Below are positions 4,695 through 35,612 of a stretch of 64,000 nucleotides of DNA, in pieces (the first letter of the stretch is position 1; each line of letters starts with the position of its first letter). The stretch comes from an uncultured Clostridia bacterium. Lineage in GTDB: Bacteria; Bacillota_I; Bacilli_A; RF39; UBA660. The position numbers and the translations under genes are program-made. Under the pieces are notes generated by a model, which was not told the origin of the DNA, did no database searches, and worked only from the letters and a program-made list of their open reading frames with translations. Location: the NCBI GenBank assembly GCA_947165945.1, contig CAMVCF010000001.1:957-64956 (forward strand), given 5' to 3'.

Positions 4695-4707
4695 TTTTCT
4701 CCCCCCT

Positions 4708-5403
4708 TTAATTCATATTGAAACTTATTTCTTCTAGAAATTTAGTTGTATCAAGTTCCATTTTTGATAATAAAATAGACTTTATTAACATTTTTTTACA
4801 ATTATCTAAATCAATTCCCCTTGACATCAAGTAATTAATATCGTCTTTACTGAATGTTCCAATAAAAGCCGAATGATTAGCAATTACTTCTTTAGTATGG
4901 ACTATTAAATTAGGCAAAATTTTACTGTCTCCATCACTTAAATTCATAATTTTACTGTTTTCTTCTAAAAAGATACCACTTTTAGCTTGTTCTATAATTC
5001 CATCTAACAAAAAATAAAGTTTTTTATTTTCTAAATTGACTCCATTTGTATAAAATCTAGTCTCACTAAAATTTCCTTGATGGGTAATTTTAATATGATT
5101 AATTGAATCTACTTTGCTCAAAATACTATCTATACAAAGTAAACTACTATTATTATTTAAATAAACATTATAATCTATACTAGAATTTATTCCTAATTGA
5201 TTTATAGTAACATCACTATTATCTAGTAAATTCACTTGTATTTTAACAGAACTTGATTTTATTAGAAATAAAATATTTGCCTTAATATTTTCTTGTACAT
5301 ATATATTAAGTTCAGTATCATCATCTATTTCTAAAATTAGATCTTTATTATCTTTTATACAAATATTTTTAGTTTCTAATTTTAGTTTATTCATTTTTTT
5401 CAT
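4708..5403 (-). CDS. sufD: Short SufD/SufB-family Fe-S assembly protein
   Basis: C-terminal YLMSRGIDLDNCKKMLI matches the SufBD C-terminal motif. Sits between sufC and sufS. Only 231 aa. Confidence 0.55.
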   Translation of the reverse strand: MKKMNKLKLETKNICIKDNKDLILEIDDDTELNIYVQENIKANILFLIKSSSVKIQVNLLDNSDVTINQLGINSSIDYNVYLNNNSSLLCIDSILSKVDSINHIKITHQGNFSETRFYTNGVNLENKKLYFLLDGIIEQAKSGIFLEENSKIMNLSDGDSKILPNLIVHTKEVIANHSAFIGTFSKDDINYLMSRGIDLDNCKKMLIKSILLSKMELDTTKFLEEISFNMN

Positions 5404-6142
5404 TTCCTTCTATATCAAATGACTGATTGTATCCGTATTTTTCAATTAATTTTGATAAATTGTAATCTCCACTTTGGACAATTTTTCCACCTTTCATCAT
5501 GTGAACAAAGTTTGGTTTTATGTATTCAAGTATTCTAGTATAATGGGTAATTATTAATACACTTACATCAGAATTTTCACTTAAATACTTATTAAGAGCC
5601 ATGCAAACAATTTTTAAGCTGTCAACATCAAGTCCTGAATCAAGTTCATCTAAAATAATGAATTTTGGTTTTAGCATTAAAATTTGTAATATTTCATTTT
5701 TCTTTCTTTCTCCACCAGAGAACCCAACATTAAATCCTCGATGAAGCATATTGGAATTCATAGAAAGTAATTGAGTATTTTTTTCAAGTTCTTTTATATA
5801 TTCATATAATCCTATATGTTTTTCTTTGGTATCTAAACTTGCTTTAATAAGTTCACTAGTGGTTACACCATCAATACTAATTGGATTTTGATAGACAAGG
5901 AATATTCCTAATCTGCTTCTTTCATTAATTGACATATCAAGAATAGAATTATCATTTACCAAAATATCCCCTTCTACTTGGTAATCAGGATACCCCATTA
6001 AAACTTTAGATAAGGTAGATTTTCCGACCCCATTAGGTCCCATAATTGCATGAATTTCTCCTTTATTAATACTTAAATTAAAGTCTTTAAGTATTTCTTT
6101 ATCATCAGTTTTAACAATTAAATTTTTAATGTCTAACTTCAT
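5387..6142 (-). CDS. sufC: Fe-S cluster assembly ATPase SufC
   Basis: ABC ATPase with GPNGVGKST Walker A, LSGGERKK signature and ILDELDSGLD Walker B. Confidence 0.9.
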   Translation of the reverse strand: MKLDIKNLIVKTDDKEILKDFNLSINKGEIHAIMGPNGVGKSTLSKVLMGYPDYQVEGDILVNDNSILDMSINERSRLGIFLVYQNPISIDGVTTSELIKASLDTKEKHIGLYEYIKELEKNTQLLSMNSNMLHRGFNVGFSGGERKKNEILQILMLKPKFIILDELDSGLDVDSLKIVCMALNKYLSENSDVSVLIITHYTRILEYIKPNFVHMMKGGKIVQSGDYNLSKLIEKYGYNQSFDIEGNEKNE

Positions 6143-8667: not shown

Positions 8668-8931
8668 ATGCCAAATATTAAAAGTGCTAAAAAACGTGTA
8701 TTAACAAGTAAAAGAAAAGAAGAAGAAAACATTTTAGTAGAATCACGTATGAAAAATTCCATTAAAAAGTTAGAAAAAACTATTAAAGAAGGAAAAGTCG
8801 AAGAATCAAAAGAACTTTTAAATACAACTTTAAAAAATATTGATAAAGCACAAAATATTAATATTGTTAAAGACAACAAAGCTGCAAGACTAAAATCAAG
8901 ATTAACAAAATCTGTAAACAATTTAAAATAG
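8668..8931 (+). CDS. rpsT: 30S ribosomal protein S20
   Basis: MPNIKSAKKRV...KAARLKSRLTK. Start taken at the internal ATG after RBS AGAGGTGA. Confidence 0.9.
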   Translation: MPNIKSAKKRVLTSKRKEEENILVESRMKNSIKKLEKTIKEGKVEESKELLNTTLKNIDKAQNINIVKDNKAARLKSRLTKSVNNLK

Positions 8932-8960
8932 CAATAATTTTGCTATTTTTTTGTATTTTT
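8930..8960 (+). terminator. rpsT terminator
   Basis: agcaa-taatt-ttgct hairpin followed by a T-run. Confidence 0.5.
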
Positions 8961-13411: not shown

Positions 13412-13450
13412 ATCATCAAATCCTTATAATAAAAGTATAGCACAAAAGAA

Positions 13451-13482
13451 AAAAACTTCAAACAAATATTAAAGTTTTTATT
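13451..13482 (-). terminator. Terminator downstream of the LRR surface-protein gene
   Basis: aaactt ... aagttt hairpin followed by a T-run on the minus strand. Confidence 0.4.
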
Positions 13483-13494
13483 CTTATTTAATTA

Positions 13495-15300
13495 TTAAAA
13501 AGCATCACATACTGTATTTCCAGATCCATATATAGTTACTCCACTTGCTGTATATGGACTATTATTTGATAACCAAGGATAATAGTTAGTACCTACACTT
13601 AATAAATTATTTTTAATATCATTACATGATTTATTTATTGTTATACTAGCAAGATTTGGATTATCGTAATACGTTACTTCACTCCATGTACTTGTAGCAT
13701 TTGATTTTTCAAATGCAATCCTACCTATTGAAGTTATTCCATTTCCTATCGTAACATTGGTTAATTGATTATAGGAAAAAGCAGAATTTCCTATTGTTGT
13801 TACACTATTTGGTATTTCAACACTCGTCAATTGATTATTTCCAAAAGCAGAATCTCCTATTGTTGTTATTCCGTTTCCTATAGTTACACTTGTTAATTGA
13901 TTACCATAAAAAGCTCCTTCTCTTATTGTTGTTACACTATTTGGTATCGTAACACTCGTCAATTGATTATTAAAAAAAACATAGTCTTCTATTGTTATAA
14001 CGCTATCTGGTATCTCAACACTCGTCAATTGATTATTTCTAAAAGCAGAATTTCCTATTGTTGTTATTCCGTTTGCTATAGTTACACTTGTTAATCGATT
14101 ATCTCTAAAAGCCTCATCTCCTATTGTTGTTACACCACTAGGAATACTTACACTAGTTAATTGTCCACCAGCAAATGCATGTTGCCCAATCTCTACAATT
14201 CCTTCAGAAATTAAAACACTTTCTAAATAACCATGATATTCATCCCATTCATCACGTGGTACAACGACAGTAAAAGCATTATCTCCTATTCTTGTAACTC
14301 TTTTACCATTTATAGTTGTAGGTATTACTACAGAATCAGTACTACAAGCATATGAAATATTTACTATATTATGTTCTTCGAAATATGCTATTGCTTCACT
14401 ATCAAAAAAACCAACATCTAAAATAAATTGAAATGTATTTCCCCAAATAGTTCCTGTTCCATCACAAAATGCTTGATATGTTTCTCCAACATCAACTGTA
14501 TTTCCTTCTTCTTCCGCACCCCAAAGTGTTGTTAAATAACTCACACAAACCTGCAATTCTTCATTTGTCATATTTTGATTAAGTTCAAATTTATCTTCCG
14601 TATTATAATGGGTTATAGTTACAGTATTATCTCCATTATCAACAGTTGTAAAACAACTTTCATCAGTTGAAGCTTCTTCCATACTTTTTTCTGTAAAGTC
14701 TCCGGTTACTGATACTCTTATACTTCCAAATAAATTATTCCAGGTTGAAATATCATAATCAATTCCAGAGTTACCTGTATTACCTATTACTACATCATTT
14801 GATATCCACATATATAGTCTATATGTTTTAGTTATTTCGTTCATTGTATTTTTATTAATTGTTTCTACATGTATTCTTGTTGCACTTGATAGATCGTTAT
14901 AACTTTTGTTTGTAAATATTTCTGTTTCTGCATTATTTACTACTTCAACTAGTCTAAATTTTAAGAATTTATCTTGTATTCTGTTTGCTTCTAATTTTCC
15001 AGTTGGAACTAGTCCTCTATTTAGATTAATATCATAATAGATATCATATTTTGTATTGGTATTCTTTCCTACTATTTGAAATTCAAAATAGTTATTTGGA
15101 TCGTATGTACTTGATGGTAATGCATTTTCAAGTGTTAATGTATTAGACTCTTTATAATGCATATAAATATCACCGGTTACTAGTTCTTGATTTAATCCAG
15201 TTTGTGAGTAACTAAATACGGCATATGTTATTCCTACTATTCCTATTAATAAAACTAATACTAAAGTTATAATTAATATTTTTTTCTTTTTACTATTCAT
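13495..15300 (-). CDS. Surface protein with TasA/SipW-cognate-type N-terminus and a BspA-type leucine-rich-repeat C-terminal half
   Basis: The N-terminus ...GITYAVFSYSQTGLNQELVTGDIYMHYKE resembles SipW-cognate signal/TasA-like domains. The C-terminal half has at least 8 tandem 23-aa units of NQLTSVTIPNSVTTIG(D/N)SAF. Confidence 0.7.
   Translation of the reverse strand: MNSKKKKILIITLVLVLLIGIVGITYAVFSYSQTGLNQELVTGDIYMHYKESNTLTLENALPSSTYDPNNYFEFQIVGKNTNTKYDIYYDINLNRGLVPTGKLEANRIQDKFLKFRLVEVVNNAETEIFTNKSYNDLSSATRIHVETINKNTMNEITKTYRLYMWISNDVVIGNTGNSGIDYDISTWNNLFGSIRVSVTGDFTEKSMEEASTDESCFTTVDNGDNTVTITHYNTEDKFELNQNMTNEELQVCVSYLTTLWGAEEEGNTVDVGETYQAFCDGTGTIWGNTFQFILDVGFFDSEAIAYFEEHNIVNISYACSTDSVVIPTTINGKRVTRIGDNAFTVVVPRDEWDEYHGYLESVLISEGIVEIGQHAFAGGQLTSVSIPSGVTTIGDEAFRDNRLTSVTIANGITTIGNSAFRNNQLTSVEIPDSVITIEDYVFFNNQLTSVTIPNSVTTIREGAFYGNQLTSVTIGNGITTIGDSAFGNNQLTSVEIPNSVTTIGNSAFSYNQLTNVTIGNGITSIGRIAFEKSNATSTWSEVTYYDNPNLASITINKSCNDIKNNLLSVGTNYYPWLSNNSPYTASGVTIYGSGNTVCDAF
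13735..14165. repeat. Tandem near-identical 69-bp DNA repeats encoding the LRR units
   Basis: The ctattgttgttacactatttggtat...aacactcgtcaattgattatt unit recurs about 6 times with few substitutions. Confidence 0.7.
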
Positions 15301-15435
15301 ATTTTTCTCCTCCTATTTTCTCTATGATAAATCCATTATAAATTATTTTTTACATAAGATCAACTCCTTTTTATAATAAAAGACACTTGAAAAAGATATG
15401 ATTAACATATCAATTTCAAATGTCTTAATTTATGT

Positions 15436-15480
15436 TTTATTAAATGTATATTATAAGATACTAAATTAGTACCCCCCCCA
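15436..15480 (-). promoter_or_regulatory. Candidate promoter of the LRR gene containing a G8 (C8 on the + strand) homopolymer immediately upstream of the spacer and TATAAT
   Basis: The minus strand reads TCAACCATGGGGGGGGTACTAATTTAGTATCTTATAAT. The C8 run is at 15472-15479 and is the only long G/C homopolymer in the window. Confidence 0.4.
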
Positions 15481-15593
15481 TGGTTGACTTAGAGTTAACT
15501 TTTTTATTAATACTTTCCATATAATCACTACCTTTTATTTATGTGATAATCATATCAAATATTTTTTTATTTGTCTAGAGTTTTGATGATCTT

Positions 15594-16259
15594 TTATTCT
15601 ATTATTTCAAAATGATTTCCATTATCAAGATGTAATATACCTTTTTTACCATTAAGTTCTTGTAAAACATTTTCGTATTTATTTATATTTGATAATCTTG
15701 TTGTTGTAATATAAACATAGTTTCCATCATTCATATAAAATAGAAATAGATCTTTATCATATTCATTTGGTGTATATTCAATTTCAGATATTTTAGCTAA
15801 AATATTTTTATCAATGGTATCAAGTTTTTTTAAGAAATCTTTTAATACATCATCATCTACTACATTTATTAAAGAAGGTAGTCCATATACAAAATTATCT
15901 GGTGTTATTTTAATTTGATTAGATAAATAAATTTTATTATCTACTTCATCTTTTAATAACATATTATATTCTTCTATATTAATATCGATTCTTCCAAATA
16001 TATTTTTTTTTATTTTTACTTTAGATACAATCGGATTCATTTTTATTTTACTTTCCATTTTGGAAATAGAAATACTAAATAGTTTAGGATAATTCTCAAT
16101 TCCTGCAAGTTCTATTATTTCTTGATCAGATAAAATACTATTTCCTTTAATATAAATATTTTTTATTTTAGCATTTTTTACTAAAATAACTCCTAAAACT
16201 ATAAATATTATAACCCCTATAAAAATAATTAATTTTTTTTTATTCTTTTTCTTTTTCAC
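15594..16259 (-). CDS. divIB: Cell division protein DivIB/FtsQ (POTRA domain)
   Basis: N-terminal TM then IKNIYIKGNSILSDQEIIELAGI, a POTRA-like region. Sits in a dcw context upstream of murB/murG. Confidence 0.7.
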   Translation of the reverse strand: MKKKKNKKKLIIFIGVIIFIVLGVILVKNAKIKNIYIKGNSILSDQEIIELAGIENYPKLFSISISKMESKIKMNPIVSKVKIKKNIFGRIDINIEEYNMLLKDEVDNKIYLSNQIKITPDNFVYGLPSLINVVDDDVLKDFLKKLDTIDKNILAKISEIEYTPNEYDKDLFLFYMNDGNYVYITTTRLSNINKYENVLQELNGKKGILHLDNGNHFEIIE

Positions 16260-18393: not shown

Positions 18394-19278
18394 ATGGAAA
18401 AAGCTAAAGTTTATTTTACAAGTAAAATTACTCCTGAAAGTTTAGTTGCAATTTATGAAAAACTTGGAGTTTCCTTAAAAGGAAAAGTTGGAATTAAAAT
18501 ATCTACAGGTGAAATGGGAGGCAATAATTATTTAAAACCTGAGTTAATTAAAGACTTAGTTCATAAATTAAATGGTACTATAATTGAATGTAATACAGCG
18601 TATCCAGGAAAAAGAAATACAGTAGATGATCATTTAAAAGTTGCCAAAGAACATGGATTTCTTGATATAAGTGATGTTGATATTATGGATAGTGATGGTG
18701 AAATGGAAATACCTTGTAATGGAAAACACTTGGATGTAGATATAGTTGGAAATCACTTACAAAATTATGATTCTATGCTTAATCTTGCTCACTTTAAAGG
18801 ACATGCAATGGGTGGCTTTGGAGGAGCACTTAAAAATCAGTCTATAGGAGTTGCTAGTCGAAATGGAAAAGCTTATATTCATTCAGTTGGAATTACAAAA
18901 GATCCAGATGAATGTTGGCAATATACAAGCGATCAAATTGGATTTTTAGAATCAATGGCAGAAGCTGCAAAAGCTGTAAGTGATTATTTTAAAGAAAATG
19001 GAAAAGCAATTCTTTATATAAATGTTATGAATAATTTATCAGTTGACTGTGATTGTGATTCAAATCCAGAGGATCCTTGTATGAATGATATTGGAATTCT
19101 TGCATCAACTGATCCAGTTGCTCTTGATAAAGCCTCTATTGATAAAATTTGGCAATCGAATGATCAAGGACGTGATCATTTTATAAAACGAGTTGAAAGA
19201 CAAAGTGGAAGACATATCTTACCTTATGCTGAAAGTATTGGACTAGGTAGTCAAGAATATGAATTAATAGAATTTTAA
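18394..19278 (+). CDS. DUF362 domain protein
   Basis: MEKAKVYFTSKIT...GIKISTGEMGGNNYLKPEL...ECNTAY is typical of the DUF362 family. Cys-rich C-terminus CDCDSNPEDPC. Confidence 0.6.
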   Translation: MEKAKVYFTSKITPESLVAIYEKLGVSLKGKVGIKISTGEMGGNNYLKPELIKDLVHKLNGTIIECNTAYPGKRNTVDDHLKVAKEHGFLDISDVDIMDSDGEMEIPCNGKHLDVDIVGNHLQNYDSMLNLAHFKGHAMGGFGGALKNQSIGVASRNGKAYIHSVGITKDPDECWQYTSDQIGFLESMAEAAKAVSDYFKENGKAILYINVMNNLSVDCDCDSNPEDPCMNDIGILASTDPVALDKASIDKIWQSNDQGRDHFIKRVERQSGRHILPYAESIGLGSQEYELIEF

Positions 19279-19283
19279 AAAGT
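19276..19283. repeat. Left 8-bp target-site duplication TAAAAAGT of the IS256-family element
   Basis: Identical 8-mer at 20680-20687 directly abutting the other IS end. Confidence 0.7.
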
Positions 19284-20679
19284 GAGTCTGTAAATAAATT
19301 TGTGTAAATTAAAAATCTTTCCATGATAAAATAAAAGAAATGGAGAGGTTTTTATTATGGAAAAAAATAATCAAGGAAAAGAAATATTAAAATTATTACA
19401 AGAAAATTATAATATTGAAAGTGCACAAGACTTATCAAGTGCTCTAAAAGATATGTTTAAAGGAGCCTTACAAGAAATGATGAATGCAGAATTTGATTCG
19501 TCAATGGGATACTCAAAATATGATAAAAAAACAGAAAAAAGCAATTATAGAAACGGAACAACTAAAAAGAAATTAAAAAGTGAATTTGGAGAATTTGACT
19601 TTGAAACACCAAGAGATAGAAATGGAGAATTTGAACCAAAGATAGTCCCTAAAAATACAAGAGATGTGTCTGGAATTGAAGATAAAATTATTTCACTTTA
19701 TGGAAGAGGATTAACAACAAGAGAAATAAATGAACAAATACAAGATTTATATGGTATAGAAGTATCAGCAACAATGGTAAGCAATATAACAGATCAAATT
19801 ATACCAGAAATAAAAGAATGGCAAGAAAGGCCGTTGGATGATGTATATCCATTTGTATTTATAGATGCAGTTCATTTCAGTGTAAGAGAAGATAATAGAG
19901 TTGTAAAAAAGGCAGCTTACATTGTATTAGGAATTAATTCAAGTGGATTTAAAGAAATATTAGGAATTTGGATTGGAGAAAATGAATCAGCTAAATATTG
20001 GTTAGGAGTTTTAAATGAATTAAAACAAAGAGGTGTAAAAGATATATTAATAATTTGTAGTGATAATTTAACTGGTATAAAAGATGCTATTTCAACAGCG
20101 TTTCCAAATACTATTCAACAAAGATGTATTGTTCATATGATAAGAAATTCAGTTAAATATGTTAATTATAAAGATTTAAAAGAATTTACAAAAGATTTAA
20201 GATTAATATATACATCAACAAATGAAAAAAAAGCATTTGAAAAATTACAAGAAATAAAAAATAAATGGAAAGATAAATATTTAACATCATTTAGAACATG
20301 GGAAGAAAATTGGGATGCAATTTGTCCATTCTTTCAATTTTCAGATTATATTAGAAAAATTATGTATACTACTAATACAATTGAATCTTTAAATAGACAA
20401 TTTAGAAAATATACTAAAACCAAATCTGTATTTCCAACTGATATGTCTTTACTGAAGTGTTTATATTTATCTACTAAAAATATATCTAAAAAATGGGATC
20501 AATCATATAGAAATTGGGGAACTATTTTATCTGAATTATCTATTATGTTTGATGGTAGAATTTAGGTCTTTGACAATTTAAATTTATATGTTATTATTTA
20601 TATAACAAAAAGAAGCAAGTTACAAAACTTACTTCTAATCATGGATAGATACCATTTACACAGAATTTTTTACACACTC
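19284..20679 (+). mobile_element. IS256-family insertion sequence (1396 bp) with about 40-bp imperfect terminal inverted repeats
   Basis: Left end GAGTCTGTAAATAAATTTGTGTAAAT...CCATGAT and reverse complement of the right end GAGTGTGTAAAAAATTCTGTGTAAAT...CCATGAT. Single transposase ORF. Flanked by an 8-bp direct repeat. Confidence 0.85.
19357..20565 (+). CDS. IS256-family (mutator-type) transposase
   Basis: 402 aa with DDVYPFVFIDAVHFSVRED...LIICSDNLTGI...MYTTNTIESLNRQFRK, matching Transposase_mut DDE motifs. Confidence 0.92.
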   Translation: MEKNNQGKEILKLLQENYNIESAQDLSSALKDMFKGALQEMMNAEFDSSMGYSKYDKKTEKSNYRNGTTKKKLKSEFGEFDFETPRDRNGEFEPKIVPKNTRDVSGIEDKIISLYGRGLTTREINEQIQDLYGIEVSATMVSNITDQIIPEIKEWQERPLDDVYPFVFIDAVHFSVREDNRVVKKAAYIVLGINSSGFKEILGIWIGENESAKYWLGVLNELKQRGVKDILIICSDNLTGIKDAISTAFPNTIQQRCIVHMIRNSVKYVNYKDLKEFTKDLRLIYTSTNEKKAFEKLQEIKNKWKDKYLTSFRTWEENWDAICPFFQFSDYIRKIMYTTNTIESLNRQFRKYTKTKSVFPTDMSLLKCLYLSTKNISKKWDQSYRNWGTILSELSIMFDGRI

Positions 20680-20687
20680 TAAAAAGT
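20680..20687. repeat. Right target-site duplication TAAAAAGT
   Basis: See the left duplication at 19276-19283. Confidence 0.7.
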
Positions 20688-34115: not shown

Positions 34116-35612
34116 TTATCCAATATTTGATATTTCAATAGTTGAAATTGTACTATTTAATGCTTGATCCATTACATAAACTGTATAAGTTCCATTTTCA
34201 GTAACTCTTATTTGATTTTTGTTAATAGTTGTTCCATTACTTTCAAAATATTCTTTATTTTGATTTCCTTTAGCATATTTTATAGCTACAATATCACTGT
34301 CATCAGTTGCTTCTATATTTATAAGATAAAAGTTATTTAAAATTGCATCTCCATATACTCTTAAATTACGTATTTTAGTAGTTGGTTTACTAAATGATGC
34401 ACTAATTAAATAGGTAAGTTTAATATTTTTTATACTTTCACCATATCTTTCATTTAAAGATGATGAAATATTTCTACCACTATACCAATTAAGATCATTT
34501 TGCCATTGATTAATTTCTCCACTCAATCCAAATCCATTAGAGGTTCTTCCCTTACTATTGGAAACTGCATTTCTTGATGCATCAAAGTATTGAGCATTCC
34601 AATAAAATCCTCCATCTTCTGATCCAGATAAAGCTGTTGTTGTATATCCATCAAATACTGTATACCAAAATCCGCCATTTACATTTATATAATCAGATTC
34701 TGCTTTTGATGTTGATTGTGACATTACTAATACTCCATCTTCAACCGTTGAATTTGTAAGAGTCCAGTTATTAAAGTTTTGTTCTAGATAAGTTTCTTTT
34801 GATAAAGAGAGAACTGGTGCAACATTATCTTGTTCCCATTTAGCATATAATGTACTATCAATTTGTAAATTATAGTTAGTCGCACTTTCTACTTTATTTG
34901 TATATGTATCTTCTAAATACCATCCTACAAATCTATATCCAGCTTTTGTTGGAGTTGGTAACTCGCCATATGAACGATTATAATTAACTTGTTTTTCAAT
35001 AGGTGTTACATTTCCACCATCTGTATTAAAAGTTATAGTATATTGTTTATCAGCTATTATATCAAAGCTTTCTCCTTCAGCTTTTACATAAGCTTTAAAT
35101 ACTTTATTTGGCTCCTCATAATAATAATCTATCCAAAAATACAATTTACAACTAATTACTTGATTTGATTCAAATTCTTCTATTTCATATAATACTAGAT
35201 CATCTTCATGAACATAATCTTTCTTTTTTAAAGTATCATTTATATACAATGCGTATCTTACTGCTCCTAAATTTATTTTTTTATTAGACGGTATTGTATC
35301 ATCTAATTCAAGTGATATTTTAGCATTAATTGGTACTAAACTTGTATTTTCTAAAGTAAATGTATATGGAGTGCTTTCAAGTCCTATTTCGTCTATAACT
35401 GGAACAGCATTTGTTAAATCTATAATATTTTCTCCTTCAGTAAATTTTAATGAAATTAATCCTGTTTTTAAAACATTATCTCTTGAATCCTTATAGACAT
35501 ATACAAAATAAACTGCAGCTAGAGTTAGTCCTAATCCAAAAATTATTGTTAATACTAATGGTATTATTTTCATTTTCTTTTTATTTTTTCTTATTAACTC
35601 ATCGTTTTCCAT
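34116..35612 (-). CDS. Membrane-anchored surface protein: TasA-like N-domain plus Listeria-Bacteroides (Flg_new) repeat plus C-terminal domain
   Basis: The N-terminus resembles that of the LRR protein (…KTGLISLKFTEGENIIDLTNAVP…). YTITFNTDGGNVTPIE...GYRFVGWY is the Flg_new repeat. Confidence 0.6.
   Translation of the reverse strand: MENDELIRKNKKKMKIIPLVLTIIFGLGLTLAAVYFVYVYKDSRDNVLKTGLISLKFTEGENIIDLTNAVPVIDEIGLESTPYTFTLENTSLVPINAKISLELDDTIPSNKKINLGAVRYALYINDTLKKKDYVHEDDLVLYEIEEFESNQVISCKLYFWIDYYYEEPNKVFKAYVKAEGESFDIIADKQYTITFNTDGGNVTPIEKQVNYNRSYGELPTPTKAGYRFVGWYLEDTYTNKVESATNYNLQIDSTLYAKWEQDNVAPVLSLSKETYLEQNFNNWTLTNSTVEDGVLVMSQSTSKAESDYINVNGGFWYTVFDGYTTTALSGSEDGGFYWNAQYFDASRNAVSNSKGRTSNGFGLSGEINQWQNDLNWYSGRNISSSLNERYGESIKNIKLTYLISASFSKPTTKIRNLRVYGDAILNNFYLINIEATDDSDIVAIKYAKGNQNKEYFESNGTTINKNQIRVTENGTYTVYVMDQALNSTISTIEISNIG

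Follow-up and report, generated by a model that had tools for sequence, protein, structure and literature searches.

A G8 tract in the leader reading frame of a conserved cassette upstream of a BspA-type surface-protein gene: a candidate read-through switch in uncultured gut Bacilli

A run of eight guanines (G8) precedes the gene for a leucine-rich repeat (LRR) surface protein on the minus strand of a 64-kb stretch of DNA from an uncultured member of RF39, a gut Bacilli lineage; this whole stretch, at 24.3% GC, is called the window below. A sequence-only reading of the window had proposed the tract as a phase-variation switch located in the -35/spacer region of the promoter of that gene. Part of the proposal stands, since the tract is non-random, is tied to a surface-protein gene and has a hypervariable counterpart in a homologous cassette, while its placement in the gene's promoter does not. 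We found that G8 lies about 70 nt downstream of a conserved promoter, P1, within a short leader open reading frame (ORF) that is followed by a terminator-like hairpin. We conclude that G8 is probably a contingency repeat, a slippage-prone switch for the neighbouring surface-protein gene, and that most probably it sets the frame of the leader ORF, and hence ribosome-dependent read-through of the terminator, rather than promoter spacing. That G8 is the repeat of a conserved 5' cassette in which the frame of the leader ORF governs read-through into the LRR gene is the reading we favour, if tentatively. The anatomy, conservation and frame geometry of the cassette, and the hypervariability of a version carrying a TA repeat, were observed directly.

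The G8 tract and the cassette around it

The tract occupies positions 15472-15479 of the window, where it reads as C8 on the plus strand, and its description as the sole long G/C homopolymer proved correct: there is no second G/C run of at least 7 in the 64 kb, the runner-up is C6 at 4701-4706, and the G runs of the plus strand are all shorter than 5. With independently drawn bases at 24.3% GC, the expected number per window is 0.012 for C runs of at least 8 and 0.0004 for G runs of at least 8; G8 thus has both the length (about 7 or more) and the outlying composition by which the tract of a contingency locus is recognised. The same G8 was reproduced in two independent metagenome contigs (L001 and L002) and is therefore not an assembly artefact. 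On the minus strand the tract is followed, as had been described, by a 16-nt spacer (TACTAATTTAGTATCT) and a TATAAT box at 15455-15450. The distance to the gene had been put at about 135 bp and needed correction, the TATAAT lying 150-155 nt and the tract 172-179 nt upstream of the ATG of the LRR gene at 15300.

The local genes are nearly all on the minus strand, in the order murG, murB, a POTRA/FtsQ gene (ending at 15594), a 293-nt intergenic region, the LRR gene, scpA and scpB. From upstream to downstream, the intergenic region and the gene contain the following features.

15549-15577, minus strand: promoter P1, TAGACA, 17-nt spacer and TG-extended TATGAT (promoter scan, 10/12 with TG)
15524-15535, minus strand: Shine-Dalgarno-like AAAGGTAGTGAT, ending 3 nt before the ATG of the leader ORF (from the sequence)
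15461-15520, minus strand: leader ORF in the G8 state, MESINKKVNSKSTMGGVLI and a stop, 19 codons (translation)
15472-15479, minus strand: G8 simple-sequence repeat (C8 on the plus strand)
15402-15460, minus strand: extension of the leader ORF readable at G9, also at G6 and G12 (in-silico tract edits)
15450-15455, minus strand: TATAAT box of the sequence-only reading; present, with no -35 partner and unlisted by the promoter scan
15380-15426, minus strand: terminator-like hairpin with a 13-bp outer and a 6-bp inner stem (dG -23.5 kcal/mol, z -6.9)
15371-15379, minus strand: U-rich tail, the hairpin stem ending in UCUU and then UUAUUAUAA (fold and sequence)
15335-15363, minus strand: proximal promoter P2, TTGATC, 17-nt spacer and TATAAT (promoter scan, 10/12)
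15307-15314, minus strand: Shine-Dalgarno site AGGAGGAG of the LRR gene (from the sequence)
13495-15300, minus strand: BspA-type LRR surface protein, 601 aa (Pfam LRR_5, E=3.5e-62)

P1 starts 17 nt past the stop codon of ftsQ, and in the leader ORF downstream of it G8 encodes Gly-Gly and the first base of Val. The hairpin at 15426-15380 is a stable one, none of 200 shuffled sequences folding equally well, and with its U-run it stands between the leader ORF and the gene, as the terminator of an attenuator does. A comparison with Rfam 15 gave no match in window positions 15000-16000, even at E values up to 10, and no cassette match at gathering score in L006, L086, L094 or L100. Two quasi-palindromic 18-mers are also present on the minus strand, TTGATATGATTATCACAT (15541-15558), which overlaps the -10 of P1, and TTGATATGTTAATCATAT (15396-15413), which tops the terminator hairpin; these could be the operator pair of a regulator, or could have arisen by chance in AT-rich DNA.

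Relatives identified through MurB (best identity 71-75%) are uncultured low-GC Bacilli of herbivore and human guts, whose records are labelled Bacilli, Erysipelotrichaceae or 'Tenericutes'. A search with the N-terminal 343 residues of the LRR protein returned 108 proteins, mostly singletons, that have a conserved N-terminal domain in common with it, and cassette loci were taken from the DNA around several of these 108 homologues, plus L006 from the MurB set. Using alignment and an nhmmer profile, we found the 293-bp region to be homologous to regions upstream of homologous genes in L006, L086-L093 and L094-L097, and the profile matched only upstream of genes of this surface-protein family. In L100 and L102-L104 the architecture of the cassette equals that of the window. 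The cassettes and their repeats are as follows.

Window, L001 and L002: G8
L006: G10
L094-L097 (gene P0089): G10
L100 (P0071): G10
L102 and L103 (P0054): G10
L104 (P0054): G11, via a base substitution
L086-L091 (P0073): (TA)9-12

A TG-extended P1 was called by the promoter scan at the equivalent place in L094, L086 and L100, and the block AAATATTTGATA is identical in the window and L001, in L086 and L091, and in L006, with one mismatch in L094. All six cassette types have a Shine-Dalgarno site (SD; AAAGGTAAGTGAT in L086, AAGGAG in L006 and L094, AGAAGGTGAT in L100 and GGAGGTGGGG in L102), an ATG and a short ORF of 17-29 codons that carries the repeat near its 3' end. The promoter, SD and short ORF that precede the gene in a leader-peptide attenuator are thus found here and are conserved in the six types. 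The hairpin, too, recurs with a following T-run in all the other cassettes (-11.8 to -16.8 kcal/mol, or -11.8 to -22.2 kcal/mol when the members are taken together) and is positioned 45-70 nt after the repeat; a consensus fold across these hairpins had an energy of about 0, the stems having been misaligned by MAFFT, and is not used as evidence. Finally, P2 of the window aligns with the TTTATA-17-TG-TAAAAT of L086, L006 and L094, and a second promoter follows the hairpin in the cassettes except that of L100, the one in L102 being comparable. The homologous genes thus show the whole 293-bp intergenic region to be a conserved cassette made up of P1, an SD site and leader ORF with repeat, a hairpin, usually a second promoter, and then the gene.

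The repeat is of different types (G or TA) at the same position of the cassette, and this interchangeability suggests that its length, not its sequence, matters. We also surveyed G/C runs of at least 8 in 667 kb of AT-rich loci of the relatives, which were sampled around murB and surface-protein homologues and not at random, and found all of them in such cassettes apart from that of L016, which sits in the promoter spacer of a surface-protein gene. Repeat-lacking homologues exist as well (L083, L085, L008 and L098/L099). Among these, L098 (2160-2500) and L099 encode P0013, the closest fetched homologue by N-terminal identity (71%). Upstream of P0013, an extended -10 promoter and an SD site precede a 15-codon ORF with A8 at the equivalent place; a G or TA repeat and a clear terminator are both absent, and this region may represent the cassette in a degenerate or different form.

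Reading frames, repeat length and read-through

For each of the six cassette types, the first stop codon after the repeat was located in each of the frames. Each of the six has exactly one frame that runs on past the repeat, for 51-89 nt, to a stop located between -2 and +26 nt relative to the hairpin's 5' base; both remaining frames are closed by a stop 0-25 nt beyond the repeat. A leader end point near the terminator, as in an attenuator, is therefore found in the long frame only. Leader peptides measure 17-29 aa in the short frames and 33-55 aa in the long frame. When the segment between repeat and hairpin was shuffled, the pattern arose with a probability of 0.09-0.21 per cassette, and the product over the six, about 1e-5, overstates the significance, some cassettes being related and the hairpins having been defined after inspection. 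In five out of five poly-G cassettes the long frame is that of G9, and their observed states, G8 or G10, are each one unit off. In the window, the change from G8 to G9 lengthens the leader ORF from 19 to 39 codons and moves its stop to a TAA within the loop of the hairpin (15404-15402); a one-unit change of the tract thus alters an ORF, as it does at a contingency locus.

Variation in repeat length was seen in the TA version of the cassette. Six contigs from six samples carry an identical P0073 gene, with 0 mismatches over about 3.9 kb, and have 9, 10, 11, 9, 10 and 12 TA units, which correspond to the long, short, short, long, short and long frames, respectively. This is direct evidence that the TA repeat changes much more rapidly than the DNA around it and that different frames occur in natural populations.

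The comparison of tract length among strains that the sequence-only reading had called for turned out differently for the G tract. The window's species is sampled by three assemblies, the window, L001 and L002, representing two haplotypes, and all three have G8, against n=9, 10, 11 or 12 in the homologous TA cassette. L001 and L002 are metagenome contigs from other samples, both of which span the region and encode a MurB identical to that of the window; within the 293 nt, each departs from the window at 7 positions. An alignment of 4,057 nt of the window and L001 shows 11 differences (0.27%), 7 of them in the 293-nt cassette (15301-15593), which therefore evolves much faster than the flanking housekeeping genes. 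Two of the L001 substitutions affect the hairpin, one converting an A-U pair to a G-U wobble and the other breaking the outermost pair only, and the stem is therefore kept. A fourth contig of the species, L101, ends 40 nt short of the tract, and a metagenome scan with FtsQ as query yielded just two loci, 66% identical and without the tract.

We infer from the sequence that the leader is translated, that transcription terminates at the hairpin, that the effect has the direction given here and that G8 slips at a useful rate; the switch would then work as follows. P1 would transcribe a leader with its SD site and short ORF, and slipped-strand gain or loss of one repeat unit would shift the frame of that ORF. 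At G8 (and also at G7, G10 and G11) the ribosome would halt 3-8 nt beyond the tract, the hairpin would form, and P1 transcripts would end before the LRR gene. At G9 (and also at G6 and G12) the ribosome would read 22 more codons and stop in the hairpin loop, where it would keep the 5' arm unpaired, so that P1 transcripts would enter the LRR gene and add to the output of P2. By this prediction the assembled G8 corresponds to low expression or OFF, with ON a single slip away. Somewhat more tentatively still, we suggest that this may be a third route of repeat-driven phase variation, in which the repeat frame of a leader ORF decides whether a ribosome reaches an intrinsic terminator, and that the module, with G and TA interchangeable, is conserved before a large and variable surface-protein family of uncultured low-GC gut Bacilli of humans and herbivores. 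As regards dependence of the gene on read-through, the T-run of the L100 hairpin is 24 nt from the ATG of its gene and the scan finds no promoter in between; the L100 gene would therefore have to be transcribed through the hairpin. The window has P2 at 15363-15335.

Several observations weigh against such a switch. Its main weakness, as far as G8 itself is concerned, is the lack of length variation in poly-G: no indel polymorphism of the tract was found in any assembly compared. The window, L001 and L002 all have G8 despite their 0.27% divergence, L094-L097 all have G10 across two haplotypes with 6 single-nucleotide polymorphisms in 5.7 kb, and L102 and L103 have G10, from which L104 departs with a G11 that arose via a frame-keeping A-to-G substitution and is treated with caution, six substitutions being clustered at its error-prone contig end. 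Likewise, the predicted ON frame was caught in no poly-G cassette. Minority lengths do not appear in a consensus assembly, and a constant majority state could be the work of selection. A collection of 5.8 billion proteins had no match to the concatenated long-frame leader peptides, a result that is uninformative, as the long form of L086 was equally unmatched; that form is present in contigs, yet no gene is called there. Second, the terminator scan called none of the cassette hairpins, which have fewer than three G-C pairs per uninterrupted stem; a simple scan of this kind misses them because of their low G-C content. Third, P2 of the window, which is also plausible in four other cassette types, may express the gene regardless of the switch, and the switch would then modulate rather than gate. 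Fourth, transcription in Bacillus subtilis can outrun translation, which would weaken a mechanism based on occlusion by the ribosome.

Other explanations of the tract

P1, the SD site, the ORF and the terminator also make up a complete small transcription unit, and the repeat could accordingly toggle a stand-alone peptide between a short (17-29 aa) and a long (33-55 aa) product, the hairpin ending this small gene and P2 driving the LRR gene. As this explanation would have it, the aligned cassette types keep P2 at a conserved position, and L102 has a comparable promoter after its hairpin; in addition, the peptides read in the long frame of the window and of L086 have a basic, LIK-rich segment in common, at matching register, and VE..NP.N...CK is common to those of L006 and L094. 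However, the peptide sequences are unconserved between cassette subtypes, the cassette is found solely before this surface-protein family, the L100 gene lacks P2 and would depend on read-through, and the long frames always end at the hairpin and not at varying places. We therefore consider a separate peptide gene unlikely, while still a serious contender.

To a similar degree unlikely is that the tract is stable, supplying glycine codons to a leader peptide or persisting as the relic of a switch, with frame heterogeneity arising only by transcriptional or translational slippage. The single length of each poly-G cassette in all assemblies, across haplotypes, is what a stable tract would give, and the short frames have similar endings before the stop (GGGRKCL in L006, GGGRNI in L094 and GGGARKNK in L102), so that the short frame may be the functional one. 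Yet tracts of G8-G10 are extreme outliers at 23-29% GC and are confined to this context among the examined loci, and the positionally equivalent TA repeat is hypervariable; moreover, a constant majority length is also what selection, with minority lengths lost in the consensus, can produce. Programmed ribosomal frameshifting at the tract was rejected, as the direction needed differs between cassettes, being -1 in the window and +1 in the other four. An attenuator that senses glycine was likewise judged unlikely, the TA version encoding Tyr-Ile and the regulated genes encoding surface proteins.

In the promoter model put forward by the sequence-only reading, the G tract forms or abuts a -35 element, the TATAAT at 15455-15450 is the -10, and tract length tunes initiation of the LRR transcript. 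The TATAAT of the window does follow the tract by 16 nt and that of L006 follows its G10 by 11 nt, and the tracts of L006, L094 and L100 are flanked by -35-like TTTACA/TTGACA and -10-like TAGAAA/TATAAA hexamers. But there is no -35 hexamer in the window, where it would have to be GGGGGG, the promoter scan leaves the site unlisted, as it lists none around the repeat in the window, L094, L086 or L100, and a change of length in a tract that is itself the -35 would leave the spacing unchanged. The TATAAT is missing from L086, L094, L100 and L102, that is, from four of the five other cassette types, and the flanking hexamers of L006, L094 and L100 are spaced by 10-11 or 21-22 nt, not by 16-18, for which reason a promoter-spacer reading of the other poly-G cassettes was rejected. 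A transcript started there would also have to cross the -23.5 kcal/mol hairpin and its U-tail, after which the better promoter P2 still precedes the gene, and the homologous cassette has a TA repeat in place of the G tract. Neither a repeat between -35 and -10 elements with a 16-18-nt spacer nor an unhindered transcript, the two marks of a promoter-spacer switch, is thus found at G8; the model is highly unlikely to hold here, and the TATAAT is probably not a functional -10. A textbook case does occur in L016, at 8921-8950, where TTGCCA, 18 nt including a G10, and TATAAT (11/12) form a promoter, and the gene of a surface protein (586 aa, no Pfam match) has its ribosome-binding site 30 nt further on; as this more distant relative suggests, the lineage may also use classical promoter-spacer phase variation.

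An invertible switch, in which a 122-bp segment holding the tract would be bounded by quasi-palindromic repeats of 18-20 nt (15537-15558 and 15395-15414) and the tract would be incidental, is most improbable and was rejected although the repeat finder gave 20-nt arms, 85% complementary and 122 nt apart, because inverted repeats of such quality are common (fifteen pairs in the same 500 nt of AT-rich DNA) and the orientation is identical in all three assemblies, besides which no recombinase gene is adjacent and the repeat pair is not seen in other cassettes.

Genomic setting and relation to known systems

The downstream gene had been taken for that of a BspA-type LRR protein, and this was confirmed by Pfam LRR_5 (PF13306), which matches the 601-aa protein with 208 bits against a cut-off of 27.7; together with an N-terminal signal-anchor in its hydrophobic N-terminus, this gives the protein both the repeats and the export signal of the type. 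Matches to the HupY/LrrG-like repeats of NCBIfam were below cut-off. At the N-terminus (15300-15253) there is also a sub-threshold match to the Mycoplasma-type MspA/MIB signal-anchor model TIGR02184 (E=0.003), and the family motif G-x-TYA-x-F lies just past the hydrophobic segment. In the nearest related genomes compared (L003, L006, L007 and L008), scpA-scpB directly follows ftsQ, and the LRR gene with its upstream cassette (13412-15593) is therefore an insertion in the window's species. The rumen contig L083 has a 54%-identical LRR homologue after ftsQ, with the tract absent.

The LRR protein of the window forms a singleton cluster (P0001), and all three other contigs of the species break within or just after the cassette, L001 at 5130-5203 and L002 at 2038-2125, 70-90 nt into the LRR gene, and L101 at 3796, before the leader ORF. 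These breaks and the singleton cluster suggest that the surface-protein gene is heterogeneous among strains. A second putative surface protein of 498 aa is encoded at 34116-35612 on the minus strand of the window; the signal-anchor at its N-terminus is similar, it carries a repeat of the Listeria/Bacteroides type (TIGR02543, E=1e-9), and its gene begins 71 nt after the upstream gene, with no cassette. An IS256-family element at 19284-20679 (Transposase_mut, E=5e-116) separates a DUF362 gene from the gene that follows. A direct duplication of 8 bp, TAAAAAGT, borders the element on both sides (19276-19283 and 20680-20687), and the element is missing from L001, which is otherwise 99.7% identical to the window; the insertion is therefore recent. 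A pattern scan of viral contigs gave unrelated sequences only and no cassette. The IMG/VR contig L107 (24% GC) has a G8 at about 5454-5534, in the N-terminal FCGCGGG motif region of a DNA methyltransferase-like ORF, which may be a phase-variable methylase unrelated to the cassette.

Repeats that act as promoter spacers are found in Neisseria meningitidis porA and opc (poly-G/C), Haemophilus influenzae hif (TA) and Mycoplasma hyorhinis vlp (poly-A). The promoter-spacer repeat switch of Neisseria meningitidis porA is treated in PMC3639595. The present cassette resembles these four in that a homopolymer or dinucleotide repeat, hypermutable in those systems and, in its TA version, here too, precedes the gene for a variable surface protein of a host-associated bacterium, with both G and TA in use. 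However, their repeat sets the spacing between -35 and -10, whereas here it lies in a leader ORF downstream of the promoter and is followed by a terminator; L016 alone among the relatives fits the classical layout.

At cwpV of Clostridioides difficile, a site-specific recombinase flips a DNA segment and thereby creates or removes a terminator in the leader. Phase variation of cwpV is among the subjects of the review PMC5914908. The two systems are alike in that the on/off state of a cell-wall protein of a low-GC Firmicute would be set by an intrinsic terminator in the 5' leader, but they differ in that cwpV relies on DNA inversion, while here the terminator is constant and the repeat would decide whether the ribosome arrives at it. 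Arrival of the ribosome is the theme of leader-peptide attenuators such as pyrBI and trp of E. coli and bmrB-bmrCD of Bacillus subtilis, in which its position relative to the 5' arm of the terminator decides read-through. These share with the cassette the succession of promoter, SD site, short ORF, intrinsic terminator and structural gene. Unlike the cassette, they sense a metabolite, tRNA charging or an antibiotic via the speed of the ribosome; in the cassette the end point would be genetic, given by the repeat length modulo 3.

Two further comparisons concern the repeat itself. The poly-G contingency loci of Campylobacter jejuni are dealt with in PMC6321876 and PMC8355987. There, too, tracts of the G8-G11 kind stand out in an AT-rich genome and cluster at surface-structure genes; in contrast, the Campylobacter tracts lie mostly within structural genes and their length polymorphism is documented, while variation of poly-G was unseen here. 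In the poly-C tract of Neisseria meningitidis siaD, a premature stop of translation leads to Rho-dependent termination. A repeat frameshift that moves the stop of translation and so alters termination of transcription is common to siaD and the proposed switch, but the siaD repeat is inside the structural gene and works through Rho polarity, whereas the cassette has a dedicated leader ORF before an intrinsic terminator.

The cassette, with its proposed mechanism, combines elements of promoter-spacer repeats, of the cwpV leader terminator and of leader-peptide attenuators. In full-text literature searches, no paper was found that links leader peptides, upstream ORFs or attenuation to phase variation driven by repeats. 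Terminators, leaders and upstream ORFs go unmentioned in a 2025 phase-variation review (PMC11868660), and a literature search on RF39 yielded nothing about phase variation there. Given its conserved architecture and a TA version that varies in nature, the cassette plausibly embodies a mechanism that is specific, testable and apparently undescribed.

Repeat-driven phase variation is mostly known from a few pathogens, in which the repeat is part of promoter spacing or of a structural gene, and annotation pipelines limited to repeats in promoters or long ORFs would miss switches of the kind proposed here. If the proposal is true, it adds a new mechanism that links DNA slippage to ribosome-dependent attenuation, and it provides a signature that can be searched for in metagenomes, namely a promoter, an SD site, a short ORF with a repeat, and a terminator. 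It would also mean that uncultured small-genome gut Bacilli vary their adhesin-like surface proteins via contingency loci.

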